Shown in pieces: positions 2,612-36,418 of a stretch of 64,000 bases of DNA (within the stretch, counting starts at the first letter, position 1; each line of letters begins with the position of its first letter). The position numbers and the translations under genes are program-made. Below the pieces are notes generated by a model. The model did not search any database. It saw nothing but the letters and a program-made list of their open reading frames with translations, and was not told the origin of the DNA. The stretch lies in NCBI GenBank assembly GCA_040954595.2, contig CM082576.2:17779028-17843027 (forward strand), in the 5' to 3' direction. Origin of the DNA: Balanoglossus misakiensis (lineage: Eukaryota > Animalia > Hemichordata).

Positions 2612-2619
2612 AAGAAAGT

Positions 2620-3999: not shown

Positions 4000-4056
4000 T
4001 TATTTTTATTTTTATAAAATCTTTAATTCAGCAATTGCAGAGTATACAGGATTATG

Positions 4057-7770: not shown

Positions 7771-7848
7771 AAAGTGGTAGATCTAAATCTGAACGCAAGT
7801 AAGAAAACTATAGTTTAAAGAGCTTACAGGAAGAAACAGTCTGCTTTC

Positions 7849-9021: not shown

Positions 9022-9254
9022 ATTGGTTCTCCAAGATTGTCAATGCGGCTTCGTTGCAAGTTTTCCACTTTAGATTTCAGGAAACATCAAAGTCGTCTGC
9101 ACGAAAACCTCCACTCTGTGTGAAGACTGCTTGTAGTTGCAGCCTTTGCACGTCACAAAAACGACGATACAAGCTCTGACAAGGATATAAACTCAATAGA
9201 TATCAGATCGAAGCGACTGGGTCTGTGCCTTGGTACAGCCTCGTTTTCGCCTCC

Positions 9255-12040: not shown

Positions 12041-12375
12041 ATGGAAAACCTTGGCTGAGTTCGATTGTGACCCGAGTAGCAACCCGAGTCGCGCGCGTTG
12101 CAATCGAACGACCCCGAGTTGCTACTCTGATGACGCAAATTACGTCATATGTATGGAACGCCGTAACTGTCTTATATGATTACAGGAAATATTGTCTTCC
12201 GCATTTTTAGTACATGCTAGGCATTGCAGTTAAATTATGAGCATTTGTTAATATTGCCAACTATTTTGTCACTTTATTCAAGCCATTTAGTTTACCATCC
12301 TAGCCATTTGTCATACTATTATAGCCAAACATTGTGATTTCTAATCCTCTTCTCCGTTTATACTAGTTATTTACC

Positions 12376-14494
12376 TTATTACATTCATAGACCCGGTTAT
12401 TACCACAATGTGACGTCATACTAAAGTAATAAGAAATCGACAGATTGCATATTACCGTAGTATGATGTCACTGCCAATAATTCTGCCGGAACTACTTTCA
12501 GTTTGTAAACAAATAAAAAAACTATCCTACGATGTTATATTGCATAATACTATAGTGGATGGGCTTTGAAGTTTGGGAAATATGGGGTTACAAATAATAA
12601 AGCACATGTGAAATATCGTTTAATGATGTTTTATTAGTTTGCTCGATGTATTGAAACTGTGGCGGGAAATTTTTGGTGACTGTCGTCTGCGCTTCAAAAA
12701 TTTTGTTCGATCGAAGATGTCAGCGACAGAGCGGTACATAGCTATGTCGTCGAACGACATTGACGATTTTATAACGAGCCAAAGAAAGCAGAACACTGTA
12801 AAATCGACCACAAACGCAGTGAAACAACCTAGGAAATTTATAGAGGAGACAGAAGATGGTTTAGCGACAGATATACATGAAATTCCGCCTGAAATTCTGG
12901 ACGTCTGCCTGTCGAAATTTTTCGTCGGGTCGAGGCAGAGCGACGGGTCTGACTACGAGCCGGACACTCTCACAACATACCAGCGTGGGATCGACAGGTA
13001 TTTAGCGGAGAATGGATATAGATATTCCATTTGCTGGGATAAAAAATTCACTAAATCGCAAGAAGCCCTGCGAGCCAAAAGATGCGAATTAAAGGGCAAG
13101 GGGAAAGGAAATAAATCCCGTGCGGCGGAACCACTGACCGACGATGAAATCAACATCATGCGTGAGAAGGGTATCCTTGGAAATCATAGTCCCGAGTCAC
13201 TTCTGTATACGGTTTGGTGGAACAACACCATATTGTTAGGATTCCGGGCCTCCGATGAGAACAAGAAACTGCTCTGGGGAGACATCCAGCTAAAAGAAAC
13301 GGCAGCGGGTCGGGAATATCTTGAATTTAACGAGCGCGACAACAAAACACGCTCCGGTCAACACGCAAGTTTCGTTCGCCCGTATTGTCCAAAGATGTTT
13401 GCCGTAACCGATAAAGCTATCTGTCCGATCGAGTCATACAAGGCATACCGCTCTCATCGACCACCAGAGCTATGTATGCCCGAATCCCGTTTTTACCTTG
13501 CCATTAATTATAACCCGACAACCAACATGTGGTACAAGCGACAACCCATGGGAAAGAATAAACTAGAAAGCATAGTGCAGACCATGGCGACAAAAGCAGG
13601 CATTCCAGGCCGTAAAACAAACCACAGCGCCAGGAAAACAGCCATCCAAAAGTTGCACGATAGTGGTGTTGCCCCCACACAAATAATGCAGCTTTCAGGG
13701 CACAGAAATGTCCAGTCGATCAACTCGTATGCTGTAAACTCACTCTCCCAACAAGAGCGAATGTCTGACATCCTCGTCAAGGACAAACCGCAAACCGAGC
13801 TGGTACCTGTCACACGGCCCGCCCTTCCAACTGAAGATGTCACTCACACCTCACGCTCTTTTGCCCTACCAAGCTCTGTAAACAGCCATCCCCACCAACT
13901 CACGTCTGTCGCAGCGTCTCCCTTCCAGTCTACATCATCGGACGGAGGTATCGTAGCGGCTGCAGCTGCGGGAATGTTTTCTGGGGCCACCATGACCGGG
14001 TGTACGATCATCGTAGCCATCAATGTTGCTGGGACCGCGAGTCAGTCAGCGCCGCGACCGTGTAAACGTCGAGCCGTAATCTACGATACCAGCGATAGTT
14101 CACAGGATTGAGATGACTGTTTGATTTCGTGACTGTTGTATTTGTTGTGAAACATTGCATTTCAAAACTAGTTGACAATTTATTAGTGTTCTGTTCTGTT
14201 CTGTTCGACTTGCATGAATGTTCCGTTGTCTCACACAAAATTTATGAATGAGCTGAAACAGCTGAGCTGAGCCTCTTCACTATTTTTTCTCTATATTTGA
14301 GCAGCTTGAAATAATTAAAACCCTTCCGAAACCATTAAAATAAATTTTATTGCAAAATATTAAGACTGTCCCGGGTCTATGAATATAATAAATACATAAT
14401 CTCCCAGTATTTCTCACCCGTATTACGTCAGCGAGGAGTCACTCGTCCCTTGCTGACGTAATACTCGTTCGAAATACTGGGAGATTATATATAA
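12376..14494 (+). mobile_element. Crypton-type tyrosine-recombinase DNA transposon, apparently complete
   Basis: Boundaries are fixed by the uninterrupted right TIR (TTTACC|ATATTACG). No TSD; ends are TTA...TAA; one long ORF. Confidence 0.9.
12717..14111 (+). CDS. Crypton tyrosine recombinase (DUF3504 / KCTD1-ZMYM-QRICH1-related), 464 aa from first ATG
   Basis: DGSDYEPDTL, GFRASDE (R), KTRSG (K), CPIESYKAY, QPMGKNKL, TNHSAR (HxxR), SGHRN (H) and SINSY (Y). The catalytic set is intact. Confidence 0.92.
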   Translation: MSATERYIAMSSNDIDDFITSQRKQNTVKSTTNAVKQPRKFIEETEDGLATDIHEIPPEILDVCLSKFFVGSRQSDGSDYEPDTLTTYQRGIDRYLAENGYRYSICWDKKFTKSQEALRAKRCELKGKGKGNKSRAAEPLTDDEINIMREKGILGNHSPESLLYTVWWNNTILLGFRASDENKKLLWGDIQLKETAAGREYLEFNERDNKTRSGQHASFVRPYCPKMFAVTDKAICPIESYKAYRSHRPPELCMPESRFYLAINYNPTTNMWYKRQPMGKNKLESIVQTMATKAGIPGRKTNHSARKTAIQKLHDSGVAPTQIMQLSGHRNVQSINSYAVNSLSQQERMSDILVKDKPQTELVPVTRPALPTEDVTHTSRSFALPSSVNSHPHQLTSVAASPFQSTSSDGGIVAAAAAGMFSGATMTGCTIIVAINVAGTASQSAPRPCKRRAVIYDTSDSSQD

Positions 14495-15149
14495 ATATTA
14501 CGTTAGGCATTTGTCATATTACGGGAGACATTTTGTGTATTGTATTATGCATTTGGTATGCAATTATTGGCATTTTACATAAATCGTAGTCTTTTATTAC
14601 TTTATGTTAGTTATTTGTAGTTATTTGGAATATCATGCTAGGCATTTCAGTTAAATTATGCGCATTTATTAATATTGTCAACTATTTTGTCATTTTATTT
14701 AAGCCATTTAATTTACCATCCTAGCCATTTGTCCAACCATTTTAGCCAAACATTATAATTTTTAATCCTTTTCTCAGTTTATACCAGTTATTTACCATAT
14801 CACGTTAGGCATTTGTCATATTATGTTATTCATTTTGTGTATTGTATTACGCATTTGGTATGCAATTAATGGCATTTTTTCATAATGCGTAGTCTTTTAT
14901 TACTTTATGTTAGTTATTTGGTATATCCTGTTTGGCATTGCAGTTGAATTATGTGCATTTAGCATACCATCCAAGCTATTTGCTATAATGTTAAACTCTT
15001 GATAGGTTGTTAGGTTAATACTGGTAATTTAATAAATTATTTAAGACATTTGTTACATTATTTTGGGCATATATTATAATCTTTCACTCTTTTCTTAGTT
15101 TTTGCAAGTTATCTTGTTAACTTGGTTAGGCATTTGTCTTATTATTTAA

Positions 15150-15654
15150 AGGCACGTAAGCTGCACCTGGATAAAAAATTTAAGTTTTAAATAATCTCAT
15201 ATATGCTTTTAATTATGTCTATTAAATGCTGTTTCATGATAATATATCAAGCTCAACACTTATTTATGACAAAATGGCCAAAAATTAAAGAAAAACAGAA
15301 ATTCCTGCATTTTTTAATAAAAGTGCAATATTGCAATGAAAAATGAAAATCTGATGTCTCAGTGGTGTACATTTACTTCCATGAGCTCAAGTGGATGAGA
15401 TCATGTTTTGTTTATGAAGTTTCACAACCGGAAATGCGACATTTTCATTGTTTCTTGCATTTTCCCACGGTGGCGGCCATAATCGCTTGCGGCAAAGCTT
15501 TATTATTTATCTGGTTAAAACTTGCATATGCACTCATATTTAGGGTTTATAATGTCTGTGTATAGTTCACTGCCTTCAACTGCATGGACTAATGGTAGTG
15601 CAGTTTGAAACAAAAATTATGAAAATTATCCCAAAAGTTACAGCTTACGTGCCT
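15150..15654. mobile_element. Kolobok-like non-autonomous element, 505 bp
   Basis: TTAA TSD confirmed against the right TIR. TIR is AGGCACGTAAGCTG / CAGCTTACGTGCCT; purine-purine termini favour Kolobok over piggyBac. Confidence 0.8.
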
Positions 15655-16124
15655 TTAAGGCATCTATGATTAATTTTAATTCCTTTGCCAGTTTGTGCTA
15701 GTTATTTTGTAGATCTATCTAGACAAATGTCAGATTATCTTACGCATTTTTAAGGCCGAGTTACACGAGGCAACTCGGTAGGCAACTCGGTGGGCAACTC
15801 AACACGCAACGCCAGTCGCAACGCTACATCGAACAGTTACACGGGGCGACTCGACTGGCAACTAGCTGCGCGTAAACAGTGGCTGCGCATGTGCAGCCGC
15901 CTCAGTAGCCGATCGACAATTCAATCTTTATTCGATATTATGCATAAATATTTGGTAGTTATTCTGGCAACAGCATGCATATATTATTCTTGTCATTTAG
16001 CTGATCAACCTGGTCATCTGACCGAGTATTTTTTCTTGAAAAAACAACAAAAAAAGTTTGCGAATTTCAACTGCATACAATACGTATACTTTCTCCACTA
16101 TGTATTGCTATTGACATAATAAAC

Positions 16125-16441
16125 TTAAGCAATAAAACACCCCCAGCCATGGTATACCACGAGATTTTGACCAGTTCACGACATATACGCACGAGCGATA
16201 GCGAGTGCGTATATGGAGTTGAACTGGTCAAAATCGAGTGGTATACCATGGCTGGGGGTGTTTTATTGCTATTATATTATACCAGTATATTGAAACTTTG
16301 CATAAAACATTTTAAAAAGGCATTTTCTTTGACTATGATATATGACTGTGGTATATGGCTAATATATCACGGTCACGTGTCGTGTCTCGACCAATCAAAT
16401 AGTGTGATTTACACCATCAATATACTGGTATAATATAATAA
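16125..16441 (-). mobile_element. Non-autonomous Crypton-like element (terminal hairpin plus subterminal inverted repeat)
   Basis: Hairpin ~16128-16272, followed at once by TTATACCAGTATATTG, whose complement CAATATACTGGTATAA forms the far end. Confidence 0.6.
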
Positions 16442-16958
16442 CTAGTATCGCACTTCAACAGTATCCTCATCAATAAAAACTTTTTTTTCTCAGTTAGCAG
16501 GTGATATGCAAGTCTATATCAGTATTAAAAGAAAAAAATACTAGCTTGGGTGCTTAATTTAATTGATGAATACGGAATTTTTAATCGTGATACCAAATTG
16601 GACAAAATTTAAACGTTACTTAATATTTTTTAATAGAACAGGAGTAACTTAAGTTTAATTTAATTTTATATAAAATGTACTTGAAACCAGGTATTATTTT
16701 TTATAGCAGATCAACCGGCGAGTTTAAATCCTTGTAAGACAGGGGAGTAGATTATGGGGAAATTGAAGAAAGTTGCGCAATTTAACATTAAGATTACTGA
16801 ATTATCAAACTGCACATCATATATATGTGTGAAAAATGCGGAGCCAAAAGTCGTGCCAATCTGTAAAGTTGATATGACCGGGCGAAATAGACACGTACCG
16901 TGTTTTGCCCAAAAAGATATATGATGTACACTGGCTGTGTAAAAACTCTTGAACTGTG

Positions 16959-17998
16959 TAGTGGGGCAGTTAACCAAAAAATCGTGCACTTTGGGTTAAA
17001 AGCATGAAACTTGATACACTTATGCAATAACCCATGGCGGCCATTTTCTGATATGGATCCCAAAATACAGCGCCCTCTAGTGGCCAGAAACTGACATCCA
17101 CACTTTTCACCCCATTAATGGCACTTTTTGGTCTATTGTAACACTCAGAAACAGGAATGTGGGTTGTAAAACATGCTTGCTACCATACATTCCTCTGTAT
17201 ATTATCCTAATCCTGATGTACATATATCAGATCAATTTTGATGACATCTAACTTCACAGTAACAAAGAGCACTGCTGTCAGACTAGACCTAAAGCACCTA
17301 CAGAAACATGTGCATGACTTTTTGCAACTGATTTCCTGAGGTTGACTCTTTTCTTGGGCTTTACTAAGAGTTGTCAAACTTGATTTCCACTGGGATTCTG
17401 TTGGTTTGATATAGCTTTTCTAGGTTTCTCATGTTCTATAAGAGCTACATGTGAAGAAGGAATATTCTCAAGAACCCTTGACTCTCTGGAGAAGAGGTGT
17501 TGTCTTGCCCCATTGCCTGACTTTGTGTATGCAACTGGTTCTGTTATACCAAAGAACAAATTGTTCAATTAGTAACATACAAGATTGATCTGATACATGT
17601 ACATCAGGATGAGGATAATATTCAAAGGAATGTATGGCAGCAAGCATGTTTTACAACCCACATTCCTGTTTCTGAGTGTTACAATTGACCAAAAAGTGCC
17701 ATTAATGGGGGAAAAAGTATAAATGTCAGTTTCTGACCACTAGAGGGCGCTGTATTTGGGATCCATATTGGAAAATGTCCGCCATGGGTCAATGAATAAT
17801 TGTAGCAAATTTCATGCTTTTAACCGGAAGTGCACAATTTTAAAGTAGGAATGTCTGTGTATGGCCACTAGAGGGCGCTGTCATTTTGGATCCATATCAG
17901 AAAATGGCCGCCATGGGTCAATGCATAAGTGTACCAAGTTTCATGCTTTTAACCCAAAGTGCACAATTATGCCAAAATTTGGGGTTTAGCTCCTGCTA
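16959..17998 (-). mobile_element. Academ-like non-autonomous element with long TIRs
   Basis: TAG...CTA ends, GTG flanks on both sides, inverted arms of several hundred bp. The central ARQHLFSRESRVLENIPSSHVALIEH resembles the C-terminal part of Academ-type transposases. Confidence 0.65.
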
Positions 17999-18060
17999 GT
18001 GGGCGATAATCATAAGCTGGCGTTTTATTATTCTGAAATTCGGTTACGATATCTGGTTAA

Positions 18061-18856
18061 GATGGGTCCCTCGGATCTTTTTGCCCGTTGCTATGGGCCT
18101 TTGCAGGACATTACACCCCGATTTGGACTAAGCCGTTTTCAGAGTCTAACAAGGGGCTGGTAACTAGTTGAAAATCTGCACTATTGTGAGCGCGCGCCCC
18201 CTGACGCCATTGATATGCAAATTAGCTAGGTCAAATTTCAAAAGCCTAAGGCTTTTTATTCCGTGACCTCAAAAACGAACTTGATACGTATTCATTAGTT
18301 GCTTGAACCAGGGAAGATCGTGACGGATTTTGTTTTCGAATATTATCGTTGTATCCTACGATTTCAGCATACCCGTACCACACCTGAAAAAGTCATCGAT
18401 TTTGGGTGTTTTTGGACGCGTTTTCCCACCGGTATCGCTTCTTAGCACGACGAAAACCGAAAAAACGATCCGTCACACTGTGCGGAAGTGCGTTCTCAAC
18501 AAGCAGGTCAAATTTGGCTGGCCTACGTCACCTGTGAAAAAAGCCTTAGGGATTTTCGTGAACGGTACAAAATCTCTGTGTACAAAACATTGGATTTTTA
18601 GCGTTCGATCCAGTTACTGTGGTTACAGGACGCACACGCTATCGCTGACCGCTGCTTTGCCGTATTAGCGTGGCGGCCTATGGCCGGGCGGTAGCTGCCG
18701 TAAACATACTCGGACAGGGGGTGTGCACACCATCGTGTGTATTTTTTAACTAGTTACAAGCCCCTTGTCGGACGTTCATAACGGTTTCGATCAAAATTGA
18801 GTGTAGTGTCCTATAAAGGCCCATAGCAACGAGCAAAAAGATCCGAGGGACCCATC
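18061..18856. mobile_element. TTAA-flanked MITE (Kolobok-like)
   Basis: TTAA on both sides; TIR GATGGGTCCCTCGGATCTTTTTG extends imperfectly for about 100 bp. Confidence 0.8.
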
Positions 18857-19938
18857 TTAAGGTACCCCAAAAATCGGAAATGCAATCAATGTCGAGTCAA
18901 TCATCATAACCATTTTCGCGAAACTGAATAGTAGTTTATTTTCATATCATCACTGGCAAGATAATTAGTTGAAAGTTTCTTTAACAAAACTTGAGTTTAT
19001 ATGGAAATATTGAACTATAAGTACATACAAATATCCGATTTCATAGCAAATACTTATTCCCCAATATTTTCGGAAGTCAACAGGTCTACAGTCTGTAGTT
19101 CCTGGTTCGGAAAATAACAAATAAACACCATTTTTGCATGTGCAGATGTCAAAATTTATTCGAGGCAAAGTGGTAACGCGGGGCAACCGCTTGCGCGTCA
19201 GGCAACTCATCGCCCGAAAATCCGACATGACGGATTTTGAGGCGACGTCGCCAGACGCGTTCCAGCGACGCGACTATATCATACACACGAGGCAACTCAC
19301 CGAGCAACTCGGGTTGCGCGTCGAGTTGCCTACCGAGTTGCCTCGTGTAACTCGGCCTTTACAATGTTTTGCTTCCGCCGTTTTGTCATAGCCATTCACT
19401 TCGTTGTGGTAGGCATTGTTGGGCCTGTTAGTGAGGGCGCTGCTCCAGTGGTAGTCTTCTGGCGTATCGTCATAGGCAATTTGTACAACACAATGTACAT
19501 CATGCAAGGCATTTTCGTTATTGTAGGCATTTGTGTGGGCGCTGTGTGATTAGCGTCGCGTCCACAGGACGTTCTGTACGTAACGGACGCGGACGCGCAT
19601 TTCATTTTCAGTATCACACAGTCTTGGAGCAAGACTAGAGGTAAAAGTATATCCCAACAGTTACTGAGGGTTTCGCCGGGGGGGGGGGGGGGGGGGGTTC
19701 GCCAGGAATATTGTATTTGAAAAACTGTTGACAACTTAGCTGCCACTGTTAGTGTGTTAGTTCTTTGGTGTGACCTGAACTAAGTTTTTGAAGGTCTCGT
19801 TGCATACTTTTCATCCATACACGGAATCACTACTTCCAGCAGCGGATACTTTGTATGTTTACAATGAATCGTGGGAAATAAAAGCTGGGGTCACCGGGTC
19901 ATTCGTAAGACATTGCATTCTGACCATTCATGTTTCAA

Positions 19939-21304
19939 ATGGCGTCGAACATGGCAAGTATTCTGGCATCTTTTAACCTTGCGTATCTCACTGGTGTATT
20001 TGAGAGAGAGGATATCACCCCAGACCTTGTGTGCCTTTTGTCTGTGAGCGACTTTGAAAAGTTAGGGCTACGTAGTCGAGCACACATGATGTCTCTGCGA
20101 ACTGCATGTTGCACGTTTGGAAGAAAAGCACCAATCAACGTTCGAGAGGGTTGTGGTGCCCCGCAATTTATCATTCCCAAACCAGTGCTGGAGAACCTTT
20201 TGGAAGAGGGTTTTTTGATAAAAGAAATAGCTTCGATGTTAGCCATTTCTGAAAGTACAATTTATCGCAGGATGAGACGATATGGATTAAGTAAGATGAA
20301 CTTCACAGAAATTTCAGATTATGACTTAGATGCAGTTCTTAAGGAGTTATCAAGAGAGTTTCCCAGCTGTGGAGAAAACATGATGAAGCTGATTTTACTT
20401 GATAGGAGTGGCATTAAAGTACAGCGAATGAGGCTAGAGACAGCGTCCATCGAGTTGACCAGATTGGAGTTGAACTAAGACGTCAAGGTAGATTGCAGAG
20501 AAGGGTGTACTATGTGAAAGGCCCCAATCACCTCTGGCATATTGACACAAATCATAAACTAATACGGTGACACTTTATTATAATTGGTGGGATCGATGGG
20601 TTAGCCGCCTTCCTGTCATGCTGCAGTGCACAGATAACAACAAGTCAGCCACACTTTTAGACTGTTTTAAAGGTTCTGTAGAAGTATATGGTCTGCCAAG
20701 CAGAGTTAGATCCGACATGGGTTTAGAAAATGTGGACATTGCTGATTTCATGATATTGAAAAGAGGACCTAATCGAGGCAGTATGATTACTGGTAAAAGT
20801 GTACATAATCAAAGGATAGAACGATTATGGCGTGATGTGTATGAAGGTGTCCTCAGTTTGTACTACCAGCTTTTTTACTTCATGGAAGACCGTGGTATTT
20901 TAGACCCGCTGAATGACCTTCATCTTGCAGTTCTTCACTTTGTATTCCTAAGCAAGATAAATGACAAGTTGCAAACATGGACGAATGCATGGTCACGACA
21001 TCGACTTAGAACAGCAAGATCGACACCTCTTCGTTTGTGGGTTGCTGGACAGTTTCAAAATCCTGTGGGTGTTGAACTGACAAGCAGTGACATGGACGGT
21101 TATGGAGTAGAGGGTATTGTGGATGATGCTGACCAAGTGAATGATACCAGGCCAATGCTGGATCAACTATCATGGCAATTTACTGAACCTTGTTTGCGCG
21201 AACTTACTGCAAGGATATCTCAGACATGGACTTCTGATAACTATGGCATTGACATTTATATGCTAGCATCGGAAATAGTTAATAATCATATGCAAGGGAT
21301 ATAA
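19939..21304 (+). pseudogene. IS3EU transposase with N-terminal SAM-like domain, HTH and integrase-core DDE; disrupted
   Basis: ILASFNLAYLTGVFEREDITPDLVCLLSVSDFEKLGL (SAM-like), IKEIASMLAISESTIYRRM (HTH), [23 protein letters not shown] and HNQRIERLW. Frameshifts near 20440 and 20600; in-frame TGA near 20568. Confidence 0.9.
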
Positions 21305-24041
21305 AGATATACTCCAGATTGCAATGAAATAGCTTGAAAGAAAATTAGGGCCTGGACAGAATTAACAGGGGGGGGGGGGGCGCTGGTGCAAATGGGGGGG
21401 GGGGGAGGGTCACTATTTTTTGTGCAATGACATTTTGATAAAATATGACCAAAATGTTTTAACCCATACAAACTTTCAACTTTAAGGATTAAACATAACC
21501 ATAAATCGACAAAATTATATCTTTCAGCCACACAAAATACGTTTCCTAATTTGGGGAAACCATCAGTGGGCAAATCTACAATTTTTTGAGAATGTTTACT
21601 TATTTTCATTTTTCCAATGAAATGGCAATGTCAGAGAATACCAATTTTACACTGGGCTCTTTGTCTAATGGTAGGAACATATAAATATTATCATTTGAAA
21701 TGGTGTTCATGGTAACATAAGCAATCAGTAAGCTATATTTTGCTGCCACCATAACACTCTATTTATTTGGTAACAGATGGTTGGGCCAATTCTGTTTTGC
21801 ATCCACTCAAAATTCTGAAAGGTAGGCAGATATGATGTTAAGCATAACACATTTCAAGACACTTGATTTTTTGCTGTCAGAAACACGTACAAATACAAAG
21901 TAGTTAGCTTACAAGAATTGATGTATGCACCTGCGAAATAAACATACTATACTAATACAAAGTAGTCGACACTAAATAAATATATTTGGGTGAGGGCCGA
22001 CTTACATCAGGCTGGTAACTGTGACTGACTGTGACTGAGTGAAGTGACCCCGTCCCTCGGGAAAGGATGAGTGAAATGGGGGCAGGACTGTAGTCCTATG
22101 CCCATGCAAAGCCAGACTGAATGTAAGCCAAGGTGGAATGCCTGGTGGTGGTGGTGGTGGGTAGTGTCGACAGAACGATGAATGAATGAATGAATGAATA
22201 AATGAATGAAAGTGAAGTCTAACAGTCTTACAGATAACGAGAGAGACAGCTGTGAAAACATGATGACACATGATTGCGTTACAAATAAAAACTGCATAAA
22301 TGTGTACTTGAATACACACATTTATATGTATTTTTGTACCCACATGGTTTTGTTTGTATTGCCATCGCATGACATAATCACGTCAGATCTGCAGAATTGT
22401 ATTTCAGGTTTCAGCTATTAATAGACGATATACATGCATAATAAATACACATTTAGCCATTAAACTGTTTTCTATGTTTACTGTTTATTGTGAAAAAACT
22501 CTGCATCAAAAACAAGTAGCAGGCTTATACAGTCAAGAGAATCTGGCTTGGAGTATCCTTTGATAATCTTTCATATTATCAACTGAAGCCCTAAATAATA
22601 AAAAAATTCTACCAATTATCATCGAATTTGGTTAAAAGCCCAAGAGTTGCAACTTTTTGCACTTTGTCAACCCCAAAATATCTTCCAATTCTCACAGGTA
22701 TTCTTTGAATTCCATCCATTAAGCAATAAAGCCTTTATCTGTCTTCACTACAACTTTCATTAGCGATGTTTGCGTACTCTTGCATGTTAGATAATAAACG
22801 GGTGCAGCACCTGTTTATTATCTAACATGTTCAAATTTACACATACACTCCCAGTCAGTGGTGATAACACTTCTATGCACACCCATCAGTAAGGTCATCT
22901 ATATATGGACTAATCTTAGTCTGAAAGTAAAGTTATGAAAATAATGCAAAAAGTTGCAGCTACTGGGCCTTAAGTTATTCTTGAAATATTGCCTGATTCA
23001 TGGAAACATTAATTATGTCAGTTTTGTTATTAAACAAACTCAACACAATAATAAAAAGGTCCAAAAATGGGTAAGTTTGGCCCGTTGAACAGATCTTCAT
23101 ATAGTCTGAACAATATGTCAAACCACAGGAACTGATAGAGTTACTGATAGTTCTGTGGAAGGCCCTCGGCCAACATTGTTGTGCTACGCTCATGGCTTGG
23201 CAATGGGATTTGAGTTGGACATTAAAGGTTTGACGGAATTTACGATTGTTTCACTTTCTTTGTTCAGAAACAGGCACTGAATTTTGTTTGAGAGTTTCAA
23301 TCATATGTTTGTTTCTCAGTCCTTGGTCCTTTCTTTAACCTCTTTGCAATACAACAATACAACAGTTTAACAATGTTAATAACAATTAATTTAACTTGGG
23401 TAACACTAGATATCACAAAAATCCGGTAGGTACTTTTTGAAGAAATTGCAGACTGAAGTAAATAATAGAAAACTACAATACTATCACAGCATTTTAGATT
23501 ACCCATAAATCCCTCTGATTTGTATCCTTGGATATCCTTGTCGTTTTCTGTTCCTCACATTTGTAAATACAATGTATGTTCAATAAAAAGTAAACAAAAA
23601 AAAATAAAGTGGATTTAAAATCACGTTTCTCTGGTGCTATGAATACTGTACCTTTCAACGTCAGGAAATGACCAACTGAGGTTGTCAAAATTTTGTGGAG
23701 TATGTTTCCAAAATGTATGAAATCACTCCATGAGATTCTGTATGCTTAAGAAATTTGCCAAAGATTACCGGTAGAGAGTGATCCATGTATTGTGGATGCA
23801 CATCAGAACAAATTGTGGGATATCCCACTCACTGTGAACCCATTGATAGTTAAGTCTTATAGCTACAGTCTGGAAAATACTACCCCAGAAAACTGCATGC
23901 TACAGTACATCAATGTGAACGGAATATAACAACAGTACAATGACACTACATGGTTGTGGTAAAACGAAAAACAACAGCAATGAACATTTTAACCAAACAC
24001 CCTTATATTCTTAGTTCTTGTGAATTTGTCACTCTCTCTTA

Positions 24042-24285
24042 GGCCAAACGAAAAAAGGGATTTGTTTCTGGTCATCACGCACATCACTTAAAGCCCTGTG
24101 CATCATGTCTTTTTTTATTGAAAAAAATCTCTGCATGGTGGTATGCTCCAAATGCTCAAAGTTCACAAAAGTTCAGCCATTCCATTTTTCAATGGTCTCA
24201 AACAAAAGTGCTACAAAAAAATTCACATCATCGCATCATTTTTGCTGAATCTCAAAGACCAGAAACAAATTCTCTAATTTTGGCC
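24042..24285. mobile_element. Small Harbinger-like MITE
   Basis: TTA-GGCCAAA...TTTGGCC-TTA, with an inner inverted match ATTTGTTTCTGGTC / GACCAGAAACAAAT. Confidence 0.7.
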
Positions 24286-26630
24286 TTATATACCTTGTGT
24301 TATGTCAATATTCATCTACACATTTCCAAAGAATCTGTTTGAAAATGCCAAATCATACAAATTAAACATTTGTTCTGTTGGCAGTAACTGGTGAACAATA
24401 GTTGGTCTTGGTAACTGTAACTGGTTAATACATGTGTTTGAGGTTGGGAGATATGACAGGGTCATTTCAACAAATTCCAAGGAAGGTGTTATCCTGAAAC
24501 CAAGGACTGGTTCTTCTTCTGCACCCGTTATGAACTGAAGTATATCATTCAGAGTAATATTTCCTCTCCTGCCACCTGTTGGTAACATACAAATGGAAAA
24601 GTTAATACAGTTTACAAACCAAATAGCCTCAAATGATTTATACAGCTCCACTTTTATATTTGATATAATAAATGCAATAGAAAAGTAACTTGGTAAAATG
24701 GACATAAATATTCTCACAAATACAAAAATCACCGATTAGATGAAATTCAAGCAAGATATTTACTCAAAAAGCCTAAAATAATCAGAAAATATAGCTGCAG
24801 AGCAGTAACAACTGGGTTTCGAAACATCATGCGAGCCTCTAGTCTTATTGATTAGCCTAGAACTAGATATGTGCATAATTAATGAGTCAAATTGCTTGTT
24901 TAAGTGAAAGCCTCATTGAGGTGCCTTAAACCACCAAATACCAGACCTGTACCTGTTGTAGTTGCTGAGATACTTTAAAGTAGGTCAAAAGTCATCTAAA
25001 AATTTGGGAAATAAAAAAAGAGAATCCAACAAAAACCAAACCTCTAACCCTATTGGTTATCCTAGAATTAGGTATGCAAATAATCAGATGCATGGGTCAG
25101 GGGTCATCTGATATTTGGCACCATAGGTCATCCGTAAGGACCTGCACACCAAATATCGAAGTGATTGCACTTCCTGTTTTCAAGAGGTTTTAACTGTGAA
25201 AAGTTGATGGACGGTGGACAACGACAGACGCCAAAAGTCCACTACCCATTTCATCAGCTCCGAGTCTATAGCAGAGCTAAACAAACCATTTTGCCTAACA
25301 CATTGGATTTATGTTGGCACAGTGCTCTGTCATTGACAAGTGTGAAAATTATAAAACAAATTGACATTCACATCTTGTTCTTGTACCCTTGCTATAATTT
25401 GAAGAATTGAGTTCAAGCCTAGCTAAGTAATGGGTCTAGACATGTTCGAATTAATATAACAAAATATGTGACTAGTGGTCATACTGCATTAAATCACAAA
25501 CAAATAATGATGTATGTACATCTGGAGGTATTATCCTTCTGCCAAGTTTCAAATCAATAAGTTCAGACACATAAATTTGTGTCTGACTGAGATACTTACT
25601 GGAAACTTCACGCAAGTACTTCAGAAATAGTGCATAAACCTCTCCTTCAAATCGTCTACTGTTTGTACCAGTTTCACTGAAAACAGTGACCAAAAAGGCT
25701 TTCAACTTATTGATCACTTGATGTGTTGGGCTGAAACAAGTACTGCAATGTAGGTAATTCCACACATAACTGTAATTTAAACAGATAAGTATGCAGGTTA
25801 ACCTACAGTATTAAACTGATTGAATATTGTCATTTATCTCCATATCAAAGTAGACAACTGTTTTGATGGATCATGAAACATTGAAATGTAGTCACCTATA
25901 ACCCTTTCATCCACTTTTCCTGTATAGCGGTCCAAATTTGCCATAGAAAAGTTGTACCAAACCATTGTGGTAAAAGGGTTAAACATAACAGCAAGAGGTA
26001 TACACTTTCGCAATGAAAAAATAATTCAAGGTCTTTTTTATCATGCTACCTTAATCCTCCACATGACAATTCAACTCGGAGCCTATCTAATCAGAAATAA
26101 CAGATGTGTGTGACAGCATGCATGTGCTCACACTCAAATACACAAATACAATTTGACCTATCTTGAAAATATTGACATGCATCTGTATGGCATGAGGCAT
26201 TGTCTGTGTGCCAATATTATTAGTTTGATTGACATCTGCCCAGCCATGTCTAAGATGCCAGGATGGATGGACACACCAAGCCAGACCCATAAGTTTCCCA
26301 GGACTTACATGCAGATAATGGGGACTACTAAACAACTGAAGGCAATATTTACAGTTTCTCATGTCACTTACCTGATGAATTCCTAATGTACTCAAACCAT
26401 CTTTCAGCTTAGCAATACACGGTGTCAATACCTCATGTATGTTAAATAGGCTTGTCCGTACATCATCTTCAAAAAACTGTGCCAACTTTCCATTTTGAAG
26501 CATACTGAGTGCTGCAATATGAAAACACAGATAACTTGTATTATATTATAAAAATTTATAGTGTCATAATTTACTCAAAGAAAGTTTTATTACAAAAGAT
26601 ATACGTGTGATTTAAACATACGAATAATAT

Positions 26631-27533
26631 TTACATATAATCCCATGATATCTTTCTTTGTTTGACGTCATCGTATACGAGTGGTTTTCACGAGCAGTGC
26701 AACTTCGAGCCACAGGCGAGAAGTTGTACGCTTCCGCGAAAACCTCGAGTATACGATGACGTTAAACAAAGAAAGATATCATGGGATTATATATTTATCA
26801 CATGAACAGTCTTCTTATTTTTCGTTAGAAGAGGCAGGACTAAAAAAATTCAGTATATTGCAACAATTTTGGAGCGGTGTCGTAATTTACTGAGCGGGAT
26901 TATTTCCCCCAGGAGATATATGTTGGGAGATTTTATGAATGATCAGCGATAGTTCATCATTTGCATATACGCAAATGATGAACTATCGCTGATCATTCAT
27001 AAAATCTCCCAACAAGTCGTCCCGTTGAGTTCCGTTCGCTCGAAGTTCGGCCTTACACAAATGTAATCGATTCTCTAACAATTTTACTGCAACCTGTTGC
27101 CACGTCTTATACATTTCGTTGACCGGTGGAATATAGAGGTTCAGTCGTCACGCTGAACTGGCTCGAAACAATTGCCCACACTGATTCGATTCGGAACGTA
27201 CAGGACTTGCGCCTAGCCTAGGCTGTGTACGCCTGACCCAAAACTTTGACAGCCACGATCGTCTATGATCGTTGCATCGACTGTCTTCTTTCCAAATTCC
27301 ACCTTTCTGTTTTGAGCTTACAAAGCGATATTGTCATGGAACCGTCATTTTTTTAATTTCATTTCTGTAATGTAAATGCCGCTGCACGTACTGTTTCTGT
27401 TTGACAACAAAGCTACGGCGAATCGGTGGAAATAGTCCCGGTTGATGACGTAACACAGGGGTGATCTGGATTTTTTATCTGTCCTGGTCTACGTCACACA
27501 GGTGGTGATCAGGGGCCGGTTCATGTGATAAAA
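26631..27533 (-). mobile_element. Non-autonomous Crypton-like element in HECT intron 3
   Basis: Terminal hairpin ~26635-26792, followed by TTATCACATGAAC, whose complement GTTCATGTGATAA ends the element. Confidence 0.6.
26921..27014. repeat. Perfect hairpin, 44-bp arms and 6-nt loop
   Basis: TGTTGGGAGATTTTATGAATGATCAGCGATAGTTCATCATTTGC, then ATATAC, then the exact reverse complement. Confidence 0.9.
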
Positions 27534-27829
27534 CTTCGTTAAAAGAAAGAATCACTATTAATCTCTCTTAAAACATATCCTTTGTTATCTAATACATCTG
27601 CTTCACCATTGTTATGCACATGGTCATGGTTGCTAGGGAAATGTGTGTGATTTTAAAAAGAGTTATTGACTTATAAGAACCTATCTTCATCATCAGTTGC
27701 CAAAAACATTTTAGTTTTATTATTGGTACAGGGTGTGGTCATGCTTGCCAGGGCCAATTGCATCAGATCACCTTGATGTATCACTTGACTTTACATGTAA
27801 TACTAAACTACATGCTAAGTAAGTGCCAA

Positions 27830-28432
27830 TGCCACTTATGACCAGATGTGAACTGAATATGCTCACATTGTTTGTTAAAGACTGAAAATTTGCAACTTAG
27901 CAATGAAACCCGTCACTGTCTTTCAGTGCAACTAGTCTCTATTATACAGTCCTATTTTTATGAAATCAGTATCTCTAGCAAGTTTCATAAAATTTGGTGC
28001 AGTAACTCTGGATTTATAGTAATAATTGCAAAAATTCGTCAAATATGCAAACTAGCAGTTAATTAACGTGACAGTGCTGAATGTCTCGCAGTACAGTCAG
28101 ATCGCTGTCAGATCAATATCTGTAGCAAGTTTCATCAAATTACGTGAAGTAATATATGACTAATTAGAAGTTTGTTAAATATGCAAATAAGCAGATAGTG
28201 GACATGATACACAAAGTACCATCACAGCCTTGTGAATTAGGTATCTGTAGATGGTTTCATCAAATTTTGTGCAGTAATTATGTGAATATGACAATGCTGT
28301 CATTGTGCTCTCCACAGACAACCATTAGCAGCAAAAGTTTGATCTTTAACCGTTCTTGAAATATCGCGCCAACAGACAGACAGACAGACAGCGGTATGAC
28401 AATAGCTCACGTGGTGACCATGTGAGCTAAAA
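27830..28432 (+). mobile_element. Helentron-associated (HINE/DINE-1-like) non-autonomous repeat; 5' boundary approximate
   Basis: Degenerate tandem core (AAGTTTCATCAAAT), a (CAGA)n microsatellite, then a terminal stem-loop TAGCTCAC...GTGAGCTA followed by an A-run. Confidence 0.5.
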
Positions 28433-28913
28433 ATGAGTCTTGTACAAGTTAGGTAAACAAAACCTAATATGGCCACCAAGGTGCATTTAAGGCAGTCCTG
28501 GTGGTTTTGACAGATGGAATTCTTGGTTTGAAAGGGCTAATTGTTTCTTAGGTCACATCCTATAATTGATAAATAGAATCAACAACTCGTTACCTATGAT
28601 GACTCCAACAGTATAATAGTCTTCACTCATATGTTCTTTCAACTTGTTCGAGAAATACTTTTCGTTAATCTCTCTCAAGATTAATGAAAAAAACTCTTTT
28701 CTTGGTCCACCATAATCTTTTGCTTTCTACGGAAAAACATAAAGGAAACCATTAATTTAAAAACACAGATCGAAGTCTCCTACAAAAGTTCTGACTCAAA
28801 CAGCATAACAATAATTAAAGATTGAATAAACCTTAAATATAAAAAAATAAAGATTGAAAAAACCTTAAATATCACATCATGGATATTTTTATTCAATTTT
28901 CAGCAAACAGCAT

Positions 28914-29324
28914 TTCATATTGAACACCTATTGCCTGGCCACGAGGGCCATAGCGGCTGTTTATTACACCCGAGGGGCTGTGATATTTCCCGAGGCCGCA
29001 GGCCGAGGGAAATAGCATATGATTCTGGTAACTCACAGTCACGAGGGGGTAAAAACGGCTGCTATGGCCCGAATATAGGCCAGGCTATAGGTGTTTTATA
29101 ATAAACCTCATGCTAACAGCTGGGAAAATCTTGCAATTTTCTCTTGAGGTTGGCAGACGACACCTTCAGCGGTGGCCATTGTGTCAGACGACGCGACGTT
29201 GGTCATGTGACCGGTTTATATTTTTTCTGCTATTTCCCTAGCGGTTCATAGTCGATTCTATTTTCCTATCACGTGACAGATTCTGGCGAATCACGGCACA
29301 GTATTAGCACGAGGTATATTATAA
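28914..29324 (-). mobile_element. Non-autonomous Crypton-like element, copy 1 (HECT intron 2)
   Basis: Near-identical to 36929-37389 apart from two internal deletions; ends in TTAGCACGAGGTATATTATAA. Confidence 0.65.
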
Positions 29325-32270
29325 TTAGGGTTATTACAAGAAGTCTAGTTGATATTGTGCAGCAGCAAATAAGTGACATGACTATGTTTGATGACTGTGC
29401 TAGGTCAGATCATGAGAATATGTTGAGATACCAAACAAACTTTATGCAATCTGATATCATGGTTTTAGTTATGGCACTCAGTGAAAATATTCTGTATAGT
29501 GTTTGTGAATACAGGCTCATATTTACTGTCTTTGAATAATAGCACAGAAGCGATATAGATTTCCTGGTATGATAAATGTATATTGTTCAAATGTTTAACA
29601 ATTGTTGTAATACTGGAACATAGAGACTCATACAAACATTGGACTATCAAATAAAGATTTTCAACTTAATACATTGAAGCATGAAACAGTTTGCATGTAA
29701 ATTGCACCAACTCACTGATAACTAACATGCACTAAATCAGCAGTGGACACAAGGGACAGACAACTGATTTCAACACTTTGATTACATGTAACACTAACAC
29801 AACAAAGATGTACAGTAATTCAAATTAATTGTCTACTGATGATATCATTGTTGTCCTTAGTATTGTGGTACTACTAGTATTTGGATGCACACAGTATTGA
29901 TTGAAAAAGAAATTTACCTCTCCATAAAAATCCACTTCTAAAGTAGTACACAACTGTTTAACAGACAGAGTAGAAATTTCATCAAAACCTGTTTGAAGAG
30001 CCATCAGTCTGTCTATGCTGATAATTGTTGTGTCACCTTCTTCACAATGACTACTATCTGCAGAATCCAATGCTCTACCAATAATCAGCTTTGATTGGAA
30101 ATATCTAAGTATTTCAACTGGATTTGATATTGTATTTTCTTTGCAATATTCTACTGTCTGCCGAACTGCACGTCTCACAAGTACTTCTCCATCTTCCACT
30201 GTACTGGTATGATCTTCCAGAATTAAAGTATCTTCTTCACTATCACCTATTGGTACTACACCACCTGATAATTCATGACTCATACTGTTGGATGGAAGCT
30301 GCAAGTATTAAAAAAAACATTGTTGATGACACTGATTGCTCCATACACCAGTAATATCCATGAAGTACAATGTAATTTGTCAGAACTCCAACTAAGAAAA
30401 TTGAAGTCAATGCATCACCCTTAGACATAAAGTCCCAGTAACTGTAAATTTTGATGAATTTTTCCGCATTTTGTTCCATATTCCAACTACAGTCAGTGCC
30501 TTGCTCTCCTCCATACAGAATGTTGATATACCTGATATTAAATTTCTCAACACCGCCAGTATGTGTGTGATGTGCACTGTCTAGACAGGGCTGTGGGCAA
30601 ATCCACATCCTATTTCTGAGTTTCTAGGCTTAAAGACAGACAAACTGACTGGTCATACACACTGATATAGTGATAATATGGGTCCTCCTCTGTTGTGCCT
30701 CTGGCACATGGGCTAAAAGGTAAAACATGTAAATAGTAGATTCTTTGGGAGCCTTCAGTAATTATGAGCAGGGGGATAAGCTCTTTTCCAGTTGCCTTTA
30801 CCATTTTGAATTAATTACTTCCCTGCTGTAATTTGCAGGGTCAATGGCGTCAACAGGTAAATCTGGTATTTAAATTTATCTTTTGAACCCTTGATCTCAA
30901 TGAAAGACAAATTAAACAGAGGCCATACATGGGTTTTTGGAGACTCAAACTGCACATAGAGTTCCAACAAAAATAAAAAAACAGGGTAAGATTTTTAGCC
31001 ATTGCTACAAACAGGACTAATACTAGACTCAGTCATGCGATCAGCATCATATCATGTTCCAACAATCAATGAATTTGTCATCTTCAGTTGAAGGGGGGGG
31101 GGGGTCTCACATTTTAGAAAATGAGGTTTGGGAGGGCAACAGTTTACAGTTTGGACATACCCCAAATTCTCCCGGCCCACCCCTAAGTATGACTTAAGGT
31201 TCCCTTACCTCAGTTACGTCTTCCGTTGTCAAATCAACCATCCCTTGTTCTTGTGGAGAGCCTGTATCAAAGACAGGTGGCGGGTCGTCGTCATCGTCGC
31301 TTGAGGCTGAGTCAAAAGACGCACATATATCTAGGTGATCACGTAAGGCCTGAACAGGGAATTCCTGTTTACATCCATAGCATATCTCCTTCAGATCTGA
31401 AGTTTCAACACTTAAAACATGTCTTAAACTTAGATTCTTCTGAATGGGTCTCAAATAGACCTTCGATTGGGAACTCAATCTTCCTTTCAACTCCTTTATA
31501 GACCATTTGCAGTTAATCACTCTCAAAGTGCGTCGATTGCCTGTGCAGTGTAAAATTTCAAAACCCCCGCAATTTTTCAACTGGGGGAACCCATCTCCGT
31601 CGGCTGTTAGTTTTCGGACAACTTCCTGTTCATTATCGTCGTTACTAAACTGGATTTTTTTTACATCCAAGTCCAGCTTGGTATAAGACCTGTTTTTCTG
31701 CAGGAGTTGGTACCTTCTCAGCATTTCGATCCGCAAGACAAATGCAATTTATAGTATAGGAACCAATTTTCCTTCGTCTAGAAGATGAACTACCAAAGGG
31801 ATCGTTTGATCCTCGTTTCCGATTTCCTCGTCTGGATGTGTTAAACAAGAACGCACGTTCACGGTGTATTCGGTTTACACTGGCCCCACTGGAGAAATCA
31901 AATGCGGATGTCGACGCTTCGGCGTTCTCACCTTCAATAGTAGTAAATTCTTGACACAATCGTTTTAGACGGAGGCGGAGACCCATGGTGACAACTCCAA
32001 GTCGCATGAGTTGACCGTCACTCATAGAGGGTACGAGGGTAGGGTCTATTCTCTCCTCCTCGAATTTCGCTGCCAAGGTGCCTAGTGACAGTTGTTCCAA
32101 TATAGTATTCATGGCGCAAATACCAGCAATCGGACCAGCGAGGAAGACCCGCCACTAGTGGTTAGATAAAATACTAGAAAACTTAGAATGAATCTTTCTG
32201 GAATGTGTTTTTCGAGCGGGAACTGCGAACACGTTTGAGTCAATGTATTGCGCAGACTCCGGATTGCCGA

Positions 32271-34069
32271 ACAGCGCCCGCACAAATGCCTACAATAATG
32301 AAAATGCCTTGCATGATGTACAAATTGCCTATGACGATACGCCAGAAGACTACCACTGGAGCAGCGCCCTCACTAATGGGCCAAACATTGTCTACCACAA
32401 CGAAGTGAATGGCTATGACAAAACGGCGAAAGCATAAACATTGTAAAAATGCGTAAGATAATCTGACATTTGTCTAGATAGATCTACAAAACAACTAGCA
32501 CAAACTGGCAAAGGAATTAAAATTAATCATAGATGCCTTAAATAATAAGACAAATGCCTAACCAAGTTAACAAGATAACTTGCAAAAACTAAGAAAAGAG
32601 TGAAAGATTATAATATATGCCCAAAATAATGTAACAAATGTCTTAAATAATTTACTAAATTACCAGTGTCAACCTAACAAGAGTTTAACATTATGGCAAA
32701 TAGCTAGGATGGTACGCTAAATGCACATAATTCAACTGCAATGCCAAACAGGATATACCAAATAACTAACATAAAGTAATAAAAGACTACGCATTATGAA
32801 AAAATGCCAATAATTGCATACCAAATGCGTAATACAATACACAAAATGAATAACGTAATATGACAAATGCCTAACGTAATATGGTAAATAACTGGTATAA
32901 ACTAAGAAAAGGATTAAAAATAATAATGTTTGGCTAAAATGGTTAGACAAATGGCTAGGATGGTAAATTAAATGGCTTAAATAAAGTGACAAAATAGTTG
33001 ACAATATTACTATGAAATTCGAAATACCAGCAACAAACGGTAAACTAGCAACATCGTATTTCTTTGATTCCGCCGACACATTATCTCTAAAATTGTAACA
33101 ACGTCACAATTTAGTAGACAAAGAGGCGCCCCCCCCACCCCATCCCAATTGCGCAGTTGAAGTACGTGCGTGTTGAGAGAGACTAGTCTGGTTCCCTGCC
33201 CCAATCCCACCGATGGCTGCGCTACGCTAAAGGGAAAGGGGTCAGGTACGGCCCGATTGCATACCCAGAAACCTGGGAAGACCACGTGATCATAAACAAG
33301 ATGGATGCCTCCAATATCCGTACGCCAGTCAAGATTCATCCAGGCAGTTTATTTTGTTTCGTTTGTTGTAAAGTTGGAAATCGAATGATAAACATTCATG
33401 GAGGTGAAGGAGAGAACGGGAAATGAGTATCTTACAACAACTTAATGTTCGTATGTATTGACCAATGAGAGCCATGTTTACAATAGGCCGTGCCTGACCC
33501 TTTCCCTTTAGCGTAGCGCAGCCAGCAGTGTACTTCAACTGCGCAATTGGGATGGGGGGCGCCTCTTTGTCTACTAAATTGTGACGTTGTTACAATTTTA
33601 GAGATAACGTCTCGGCGGAATCAAAGAAATACGATGTTGCTAGTTTACCGTTTGTTGCTGGTATTTCGAATTTCATAGTAATAAATGCGCATAATTTAAC
33701 TGCAATGCCTAGCATGATATTCCAAATAACTAACATAAAGTAATAAAAGACTACGATTTATGTAAAATGCCAATAATTGCATACCAAATGCGTAATACAA
33801 TACACAAAATGTCTCCCGTAATATGACAAATGCCTAACGTAATATGGTAAATAACTAGTATAAACGGAGAAGAGGATTAGAAATCACAATGTTTGGCTAT
33901 AATAGTATGACAAATGGCTAGGATGGTAAACTAAATGGCTTGAATAAAGTGACAAAATAGTTGGCAATATTAACAAATGCACATAATTTAACTGCAATGC
34001 CTAGCATGTACTAAAAATGCTGAAGACAATATTTCCTGTAATCATATAAGACAGTTACGGCGTTCCATA
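32271..34069 (-). repeat. Right TIR of IS3EU no. 2 (~1.13 kb net)
   Basis: Reverse complement of the reconstructed left TIR, with one MITE insertion. Confidence 0.92.
33010..33678. mobile_element. TA-flanked MITE (Tc1/mariner-like) with ~155-bp TIRs
   Basis: TA-CTATGAAATTCG...CGAATTTCATAG-TA; the empty site is visible in the left TIR. Confidence 0.85.
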
Positions 34070-35569: not shown

Positions 35570-36418
35570 ATGCTAAAATCAAACAGGCAGTTTTGAACCA
35601 GGCCATAGCTGCACACAATGGAGAACAAAAAAGTCAACAAGATCACAACAATGAAAAAAATACCAACAATAGTACCAGTGATGAAACAAGAATAACACAG
35701 CAACATCAACCAAACCAAAAAGATCGACCAGAACCTAAGGTTGTACAGAACACTGAACATTTGAGTACAAGTAATATTGATAAAGTCCATATTTGGACAG
35801 AGAGGGAAGAAAGTTTGTTAGTAGTATTGCGTACAGATATGGAAGATGTCTTCAAACAAAATGTAAGACATGAGAAGTTGTGACAAAAAAATTGTTACAG
35901 AAATGAAAAAATCTGATGTGCTTGTGTATGTTGTACAGGCAAGAGATAAATGGAAAAATCTAAAAAAATCATATATGGAAGTTGTCGACAATAAACGGAA
36001 AACTGGTGCCAAAAGAAAAACTTGTCGACACTATGCTGAATTTAACAATCTATATGGAACAAAAGAATCCACACATCCTACATGCACAATTGATTCTCTC
36101 GACATCAACGACAAGACTGACAAGACTAAGGACATCGACAAAACGACAGCGACAGACATGACAATAGACATGAGTACTACATCAACCACAGAAAGACAAG
36201 AAAGTACAGATGTCATTCATGTGACACCAAGTGCCTCGAGAAAAAGAAAGAAAACATCAGACAGGGTTTCTCCCCAAGACAAATTATTATCTACCATATC
36301 AAAGATGGAAAAGAAAAATGATGATTTGTTTAAAATAATGGAAAAACAACACACAGAAAAAATGAAAAGAATGGACAGAATGTTGGATCTGTACGAACGC
36401 TCTTTAAAAAAGAACTAA
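35570..36418 (+). pseudogene. Harbinger Myb/SANT-like (trihelix) DNA-binding protein, main exon; disrupted
   Basis: WTEREESLLV...HEKL*...KIVTEMKK...QARDKWKNLKKSY plus a C-terminal coiled coil. A TGA and a frameshift fall near 35881-35892. Confidence 0.85.

Follow-up and report, generated by a model that had tools for sequence, protein, structure and literature searches.

Introduction

Two-gene DNA transposons are known from Harbinger, in which a Myb/SANT protein accompanies the transposase, and from Zisupton, in which F-box and SUMO-protease domains do. These belong to other superfamilies and have other partners, with no HECT domain and no SAM pair, but have a second element-encoded protein in common with the element that we describe here, a decayed transposon of about 22 kb from the hemichordate Balanoglossus misakiensis (assembly GCA_040954595.2). 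The element lies in a 64,000-nucleotide stretch of contig CM082576.2 (17,779,028 to 17,843,027, forward strand; hereafter the window, to whose numbering all coordinates refer unless a relative is named). It carries two convergent genes, one for a transposase and one for a HECT-like ubiquitin ligase; each protein very probably begins with a SAM domain, and the ligase may dock on the transposase through this pair.

IS3EU/GingerRoot elements are described with TA..TA ends, a 6-bp target-site duplication and an integrase-type DDE core with its first D at about residue 200 (excerpts of PMC10045372 and PMC6839031), and the ancestral IS3EU element has been drawn with two proteins (excerpt of PMC10853768); the window's element has all of these in common with them. 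It differs from plant GingerRoot elements in its terminal inverted repeats, of about 1.15 kb compared with 100-150 bp, and in the predicted SAM domain on its transposase, a domain that the excerpts of PMC10045372 and PMC6839031 do not mention. In fungal IS3EU families with TAYGG..CCRTA ends and the same 6-bp duplication, an alpha-kinase is encoded opposite the transposase, in addition to TET/JBP genes (excerpts of PMC12730594), and so the second slot is likewise held there by a protein-modifying enzyme. Those enzymes are, however, a kinase and a dioxygenase, whereas the one here resembles a ubiquitin ligase, and the excerpts describe no paired SAM domains.

The term HECT is absent from the main texts of PMC10045372, PMC6839031, PMC12730594, PMC10853768 and a survey of DDE transposases (10.1101/2021.09.26.461848), as well as from the supplements searched, those of PMC10045372 and PMC12730594. 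We found neither a HECT gene nor paired SAM domains reported for IS3EU in the literature; Repbase and one transposon-diversity review, which lay outside our coverage, may name the second protein. In excerpts of related work, G2E3-like matches appear among unclassified fish repeats (PMC5638112), HECT is named among expressed domains only (PMC13726273), and GingerRoot elements were searched for captured gene fragments (PMC6839031). Relative to known IS3EU elements, the most striking new parts are the complementary faces of the two putative SAM domains and a HECT domain that apparently has no subdomain for binding the ubiquitin-conjugating enzyme (E2).

Results and discussion

Structure and classification of the element

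The main parts of the element are as follows (evidence in brackets).

12152-34069, no strand: whole IS3EU-type element, decayed, with nested insertions (ends, flanking duplication, self-alignment)
12146-12151, no strand: left 6-bp target-site duplication, palindromic CATATG (sequence flanking the ends)
34070-34075, no strand: right 6-bp target-site duplication, CATATG (sequence flanking the ends)
12152-19545, plus strand: left terminal inverted repeat of about 1.15 kb, split into the four segments 12152-12385, 14504-15154, 15663-15752 and 19367-19545 (self-alignment)
32271-34069, minus strand: right terminal inverted repeat of about 1.15 kb, split into the two segments 32271-33004 and 33675-34069 (self-alignment)
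19939-21304, plus strand: intronless transposase gene of about 455 codons, encoding SAM, helix-turn-helix and integrase-type DDE core, with two frameshifts and one stop (Pfam, frame reading)
19951-20118, plus strand: transposase SAM domain, acidic mid-loop residue present, end-helix glycine missing (family profiles, alignment)

The ends are exact, with TATGG at 12152, CCATA up to 34069 and CATATG on both flanks, just as a preliminary description of this DNA had them. CATATG is a palindrome whose left copy closes an older palindromic repeat (11942-12151), and the outer 8 bases likewise mirror each other; the boundary is therefore fixed by the TAYGG end motif of the family and not by the duplication alone. 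With three nested insertions removed from the left repeat and one from the right, the inverted repeats measure about 1.15 kb and are identical at 1119 of 1159 aligned bases, close to the 1.1 kb first proposed, although neither is contiguous in this copy.

The ends fit the TA..TA termini of IS3EU/GingerRoot elements and, more closely, the TAYGG..CCRTA termini of the fungal families. The target-site duplication is 6 bp long, and five relatives have different perfect duplications of the same length. The transposase has an integrase-type DDE core (Pfam rva_4, E 1.1e-56) with its first-D motif at residue 200, inside the range of 100-300 residues from the N-terminus, and its core motifs agree by eye with those of IS3EU-1_CVi as printed in a published supplement. 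Together with the two convergent genes, these features of ends, duplication and core support the earlier assignment: the element is classed as a decayed DNA transposon of IS3EU/GingerRoot type.

A near-identical intact copy or allele of the transposase gene probably exists, because contigs of run X1 depart from the window at all three lesions and their differences yield a single 455-residue frame; such contigs can be mosaics. A search of viral contigs gave one weak match to the transposase and none to the ligase.

The ligase is a gene of the element family

The second gene runs from 32112 to 24316 on the minus strand, with six exons, five GT-AG introns, about 660 codons and two frameshifts.

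31209-32112, minus strand: exon 1, SAM, helix, basic linker, ubiquitin-like fold, C2HC zinc finger and acidic linker (Pfam, model of a relative)
31945-32112, minus strand: ligase SAM domain, end-helix glycine motif present (SAM_1, family profile, alignment)
near 31655, minus strand: frameshift of exon 1, in an A run (frame reading)
29918-30298, minus strand: exon 2, beginning of the HECT N-lobe (gene model)
28594-28726, minus strand: exon 3, HECT N-lobe motif DxGGPRKEFF (gene model)
26372-26511, minus strand: exon 4, covering the site of the apparently missing E2-binding subdomain (gene model, alignment)
25600-25769, minus strand: exon 5, hinge and beginning of the C-lobe, with a frameshift near 25715 (gene model)
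24316-24575, minus strand: exon 6, C-lobe of the HECT domain; it carries the catalytic cysteine motif PTSNTC and the aromatic C-terminal tail (Pfam HECT, E 2.8e-8)

The N-terminal peptides quoted earlier for both proteins and the motif LPTSNTC are all present in the sequence. An assembly error behind the first frameshift found no support, as a contig over 29538-32035 shows no difference, though its run may be the source sample. The closest relatives of the ligase are hemichordate proteins (74% and 63% over the middle domain). Relatives L002 and L003 have no introns between their HECT exons, the arrangement expected of transcripts. Three public hemichordate gene models (P0024, P0025 and P0199) fuse the ligase SAM exon to receptor-like domains, or the HECT to a death-effector domain; these are either prediction artefacts or recruited exons.

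That the two genes belong to the element itself had been proposed together with a search for further convergent pairs. Scanning metagenomes with the transposase alignment gave 80 loci, 33 of them informative in having a transposase core followed by 1 kb or more of sequence. HECT sequence lies downstream on the opposite strand in 25 of these 33 (14 of the 25 are from one assembly), and in none of the 33 does it lie upstream or on the same strand; the eight loci without HECT are taken up below. One family is represented by five complete copies with TATGG ends, five distinct perfect 6-bp duplications and HECT sequence within. Each family or contig type was represented by one of 17 chosen loci in trees built from 331 transposase columns and from 84 HECT columns; the two trees have their well-supported clades in common, and their distances correlate (Mantel rho 0.86 over the 17 loci; rho 0.61, p 0.003, within the 13 loci of the SAM clade). 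This congruence shows joint inheritance, not molecular co-evolution. Many animals have several ligase copies per genome, and the relatives span cnidarians, molluscs, hemichordates and an echinoderm. To judge from layout and trees, the ligase is almost certainly an integral gene of the element.

The reverse scan, with the ligase as query, found five loci in prokaryote genome bins (L082-L086): one convergent pair, one divergent pair (L085), one with transposase scraps and two with no transposase. Their ligase genes are split by introns and are likely animal host contamination. Six other loci (L063, L070, L078, L079, L065 and L076) are non-autonomous derivatives. Their right end repeats the left end in inverted orientation, and the repeated stretch takes in the beginning of the transposase gene; such growth of the repeat over the transposase SAM exon is a plausible ancient route for copying a SAM domain between ends.

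Both proteins very probably begin with a SAM domain

SAM_1 matches the window's ligase at E 0.0021 (18.8 bits, below the cut-off of 23), and no SAM is among the Pfam matches listed for the N-terminus of its transposase (25 of 26 families). The family profiles give better scores. That of the ligase matches the SAMs of BICC1, ANKS6 and tankyrase at E 2e-10 to 1e-8 (BICC1 at 2.4e-10), that of the transposase matches the tankyrase SAM at E 2.3e-4, and the two profiles match each other with probability 97. Pfam SAM is found at E 0.01 or better in 33 of 42 chosen ligase relatives, and SAM_1 in 8 of 25 transposase rows (best E 1.9e-5). In the structural model of the N-terminus of an intact ligase relative, L017 (predicted local distance difference test score 90), a SAM domain is followed by a ubiquitin-like fold and a C2HC finger, and the SAM superposes on that of tankyrase (Z 9.3, root-mean-square deviation (rmsd) 2.2, 59 residues aligned). 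We are confident that both N-terminal domains are SAM, from sequence profiles in the case of the transposase and also from the model in the case of the relative's ligase. The earlier prediction of SAM on both proteins accordingly stands at the level of family profiles, while the window's own sequences match Pfam SAM weakly or, among the matches listed, not at all. General background on SAM domains is given in excerpts of PMC6328559.

Further along the ligase N-terminus, the ubiquitin-like fold of the L017 model has a middling score against TBK1 (Z 7.5, rmsd 2.2, 77 aligned), and the C2HC finger has weak Pfam matches. A UBZ4-type ubiquitin-binding role for the finger was put aside, as the aspartate after the histidine is not conserved. 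Foldseek with the N-terminal model returned nothing at E 0.001 or better, whereas a wider structural aligner did find matches; an atlas search with the window's ligase N-terminus gave leads that were all under 0.9 and mostly SAM, and a first homolog search with this N-terminus found 2 proteins.

Complementary faces of the two SAM domains

The closest solved SAMs, from tankyrase, ANKS3-ANKS6 and CNK-Hyphen, bind in the end-helix/mid-loop mode. We aligned 43 ligase and 38 transposase SAMs, chosen by a pattern that leaves the scored positions unconstrained, and mapped their positions on tankyrase through ungapped structural alignments and the interface residues given in excerpts of PMC4980433. 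The end-helix glycine is present in 43/43 ligases and 1/38 transposases, a hydrophobic residue precedes it in 43/43 ligases and 0/38 transposases, and a basic residue follows two positions past it in 41/43 and 0/38, respectively. The mid-loop face shows the opposite bias: an acidic residue at the position of tankyrase D1055/D902 is found in 36/38 transposases compared with 17/43 ligases, an acidic residue at the E911 position in 36/38 compared with 28/43, and a hydrophobic residue at the V903 position in 28/38 compared with 19/43. The window's own SAM pair follows this pattern. In this way both marks of the solved pairs, end-helix glycine motif and acidic mid-loop residue, map onto the two element proteins; what sets the element apart is that one face lies on a transposase and the other on its partner enzyme, as read from sequence conservation.

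Complementary faces of this kind are the trace expected of a heterodimer in which the transposase would cap the chain, and we consider it somewhat more probable that the two SAMs bind each other than that they do not. The tether between ligase and transposase that had been proposed earlier is thus supported indirectly. The two sets form separate clades (support 100), with 28% identity between them compared with 47% and 42% within. Because they are separate clades, each conserving a different face, selection on them appears to have been long and divergent. The 31% identity between the two domains in the window and their separate clades led us to reject the idea that one SAM was copied recently to the opposite end.

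A shortened HECT domain

The ligase has a two-lobed fold, an N-lobe motif, a catalytic cysteine motif and an aromatic tail in common with canonical HECT E3 ligases (HUWE1, SMURF1, UBR5, AREL1, E6AP), but is about 90 residues shorter at the site of the small E2-binding subdomain; it is also transposon-borne, with an N-terminal SAM, ubiquitin-like fold and zinc finger. The fold is seen in the model of the C-terminal domain of a relative, P0227 (predicted template modelling score 0.89), which has both lobes and the large N-lobe subdomain and superposes on HUWE1 (Z 21.6, rmsd 3.3, 271/384 residues aligned). Of 120 ligase relatives, 117 retain the cysteine motif, and 117 have an aromatic residue four from the C-terminal end. 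The distance from N-lobe motif to cysteine has a median of 199 residues (113/120 have both motifs), compared with about 288 in AREL1 as read off the alignment.

The gap lies at roughly Pfam HECT positions 80-155, which from general knowledge of the fold we take to be the small N-lobe subdomain; in P0195 about 75-80 of these positions are represented by about 8 residues. In canonical enzymes this subdomain houses the E2 site (excerpt of PMC3077247). Judged from lengths and profile positions, the stretch missing here is apparently the E2-binding subdomain. Because L039, a distant SAM-less ligase, retains up to about 98 residues in the gap region compared with a median of 26 in the short form (108/120 measured), it is the SAM clade that appears to carry the shortened HECT. 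The earlier description of a HECT ligase holds for the C-lobe with its catalytic cysteine and fails for a full-length domain, and we class the protein as HECT-like, not canonical, given the apparent loss of the small subdomain. Ordinary HECT chemistry cannot be assumed for a domain about 90 residues short at this site; we nonetheless hold it likely that the ligase is catalytically active.

SAM presence across the family

Where both N-termini are readable, SAM is present on both proteins (the window and L072) or on neither (the L039 and L066 families, from one assembly), and since such distant elements carry the ligase with SAM on neither gene, SAM is not universal. The proposal that SAM is gained or lost jointly fits these four cases; because all SAM-bearing loci form one clade, however, they represent a single event. 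SAM-less transposases of the L039 and L066 families start with another predicted helical stretch (in L039, 9677-10438 of that locus, plus strand). SAM-less ligases of the P0212-P0289 group and of L066 (15400-15520 of that locus, minus strand; a short helix) have one amphipathic-looking helix at the start, shorter than the helical stretch of the transposases. The helix-start ligase and helical-start transposase may form an alternative docking pair. A nearest-neighbour assignment of the SAM state of ligases left 93 of 122 reference ligases unlabelled, including nearly all helix-start ones.

Proposed mechanism

In the reading that we favour, and to which we give about an even chance, the element is a decayed two-gene IS3EU-type transposon whose shortened HECT-like ligase likely docks on the element's own transposase through a SAM-SAM heterodimer and tags it or its neighbours. 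Each gene would be transcribed inwards from near its own terminal repeat. The end-helix face of the ligase would bind the mid-loop face of the transposase, which would cap the SAM chain rather than extend it. Since the E2-binding subdomain is inferred to be missing, the ligase cysteine would need to be charged in a non-standard way, perhaps helped by the ubiquitin-like fold or the zinc finger. Once docked, the ligase would ubiquitylate the transposase or adjacent proteins. The substrate is the least supported step: our first choice would be the bound transposase, which would be turned over or whose spent complex would be taken apart, with chromatin or silencing proteins at the element ends about level with it. 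Support falls from docking to activity to substrate, each of them inferred.

More tentatively, and with more doubt than belief, we suggest that a widespread animal branch of IS3EU pairs transposase and ligase through a purpose-built SAM plug and socket, that the ligase is an active minimal HECT with a new charging mode, and that its members are publicly annotated as host ligases. If the docking reading is true, a transposon with its own ubiquitin-transfer enzyme wired to its transposase would offer a small, direct system for studying how spent complexes are removed, and the same system would address how elements disarm silencing. A natural HECT family with the cysteine but apparently without the E2-binding subdomain would test the requirements for E2-to-E3 transfer. 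Multi-copy 'HECT' and 'SAM-HECT' annotations in molluscs, corals and hemichordates are probably transposon genes, which would inflate counts of host ligase expansions.

Alternative explanations

A number of observations weigh against docking of an active ligase on its transposase. HECT is lacking in eight of the 33 informative loci: three of these are truncated derivatives of a HECT-bearing family, to which they are 96-97% identical, another contains a SAM exon of ligase type, and in the remaining four the transposase is broken, one of the four (L028) being a closed 3.0-kb transposase-only copy. The SAM-bearing loci form a single clade (support 85 and 79), and the SAM sequences counted are related to one another, not independent. 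Of 64 ligases of 600 residues or more, 42 have no SAM (their partner transposases were not among the sequences compared), and most of these have a plain helix at the N-terminus and are nested in the short-HECT group. The ligase SAM retains part of a mid-loop face of its own, acidic at two positions in 35/43 and 28/43, and may instead bind itself or a host SAM. The apparently missing subdomain casts doubt on activity.

Some of these points would suit a ligase that acts independently against silencing, its SAM polymerising with itself or binding and tagging host SAM proteins of Polycomb or Bicc1/ANKS type, while the transposase SAM serves another partner. We consider this unlikely. A full end-helix face with part of a mid-loop face, nearest solved relatives that are polymer-forming SAMs, and the many ligases that keep the rest of the protein without a SAM all speak for it; it leaves unexplained why the transposase conserves exactly the complementary face (36/38) and why all four readable cases have SAM either on both genes or on none. 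It is distinctly unlikely that the ligase docks as a non-enzyme, a scaffold, ubiquitin trap or decoy. This would fit the shortfall between N-lobe motif and cysteine and the partial alignment to HUWE1, at the very subdomain that houses the E2 site, but a dead enzyme would be expected to lose the cysteine motif and C-terminal aromatic, each of which is kept in 117/120 relatives across cnidarians, molluscs, hemichordates and an echinoderm.

The paired SAMs could also be a by-product, left when a terminal repeat expanded across the first exon of one gene and so carried a copy of SAM to the opposite end, with no functional link between the two domains. Both genes do begin just inside the repeats, the six non-autonomous derivatives show repeat growth over the 5' end of the transposase gene, and with the transposase profile the best ligase SAM reaches 34 bits, compared with 23 for the best solved SAM. 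The separate, divergent SAM clades run counter to this account, which we hold to be quite improbable. With the ligase profile, moreover, BICC1 (42.9 bits) does as well as the best transposase (40.4), so that a common origin of the two SAMs is not established; SAM copying by repeat growth would in any case also be compatible with docking. Hardly credible is capture of a host gene by this one copy, as in Pack-MULEs. The five introns of the ligase would fit, and capture of gene fragments was indeed looked for in GingerRoot elements; against this, the ligase has the same place and orientation in 25/33 loci, the trees are congruent and many animals have several copies per genome; that distant relatives have the layout in common contradicts capture by a single copy.

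Nested insertions and surroundings

The insertions that interrupt the inverted repeats, all with approximate edges, are listed below.

12386-14503, plus strand: Crypton-like insertion that interrupts the left repeat (junctions; DUF3504, E 1.2e-20; Phage_integrase, E 2e-8)
12627-14111, plus strand: open reading frame for a protein of tyrosine-recombinase type inside the Crypton-like insertion (DUF3504 and Phage_integrase matches)
15155-15662, no strand: non-coding insertion with its own short inverted ends (repeat junctions)
15753-19366, no strand: insertion with its own inverted ends, containing further high-copy repeats (self-alignment, junctions)
33005-33674, no strand: insertion in the right repeat (self-alignment, junctions)

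The insertion site of the whole element, CATATG, ends a 210-bp palindromic repeat that lies within an older inverted repeat (11802-12151 and 34070-34219), a case of repeated insertion at one site. Upstream, at about 1640-2670 (minus strand), lies a broken transposase from a second IS3EU-type clade, which is more distant; it reaches 34% against the transposase core of L002. An apparently intact long interspersed nuclear element at 4057-9039 (minus strand) has two frames, one of 1241 residues containing endonuclease and reverse-transcriptase motifs and one of 396 residues containing zinc-knuckle motifs, all recognised by eye; its host site consists of remnants of an element of long-terminal-repeat type at 3222-4022 and 9153-9593. 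Downstream, a convergent pair at 35867-36418 (plus strand) and 37913-38461 (minus strand) resembles by eye a Harbinger element, with a Myb/SANT-like protein and a DDE nuclease, and a large inverted pair of tandem arrays with a 41-bp period occupies 55460-58370.

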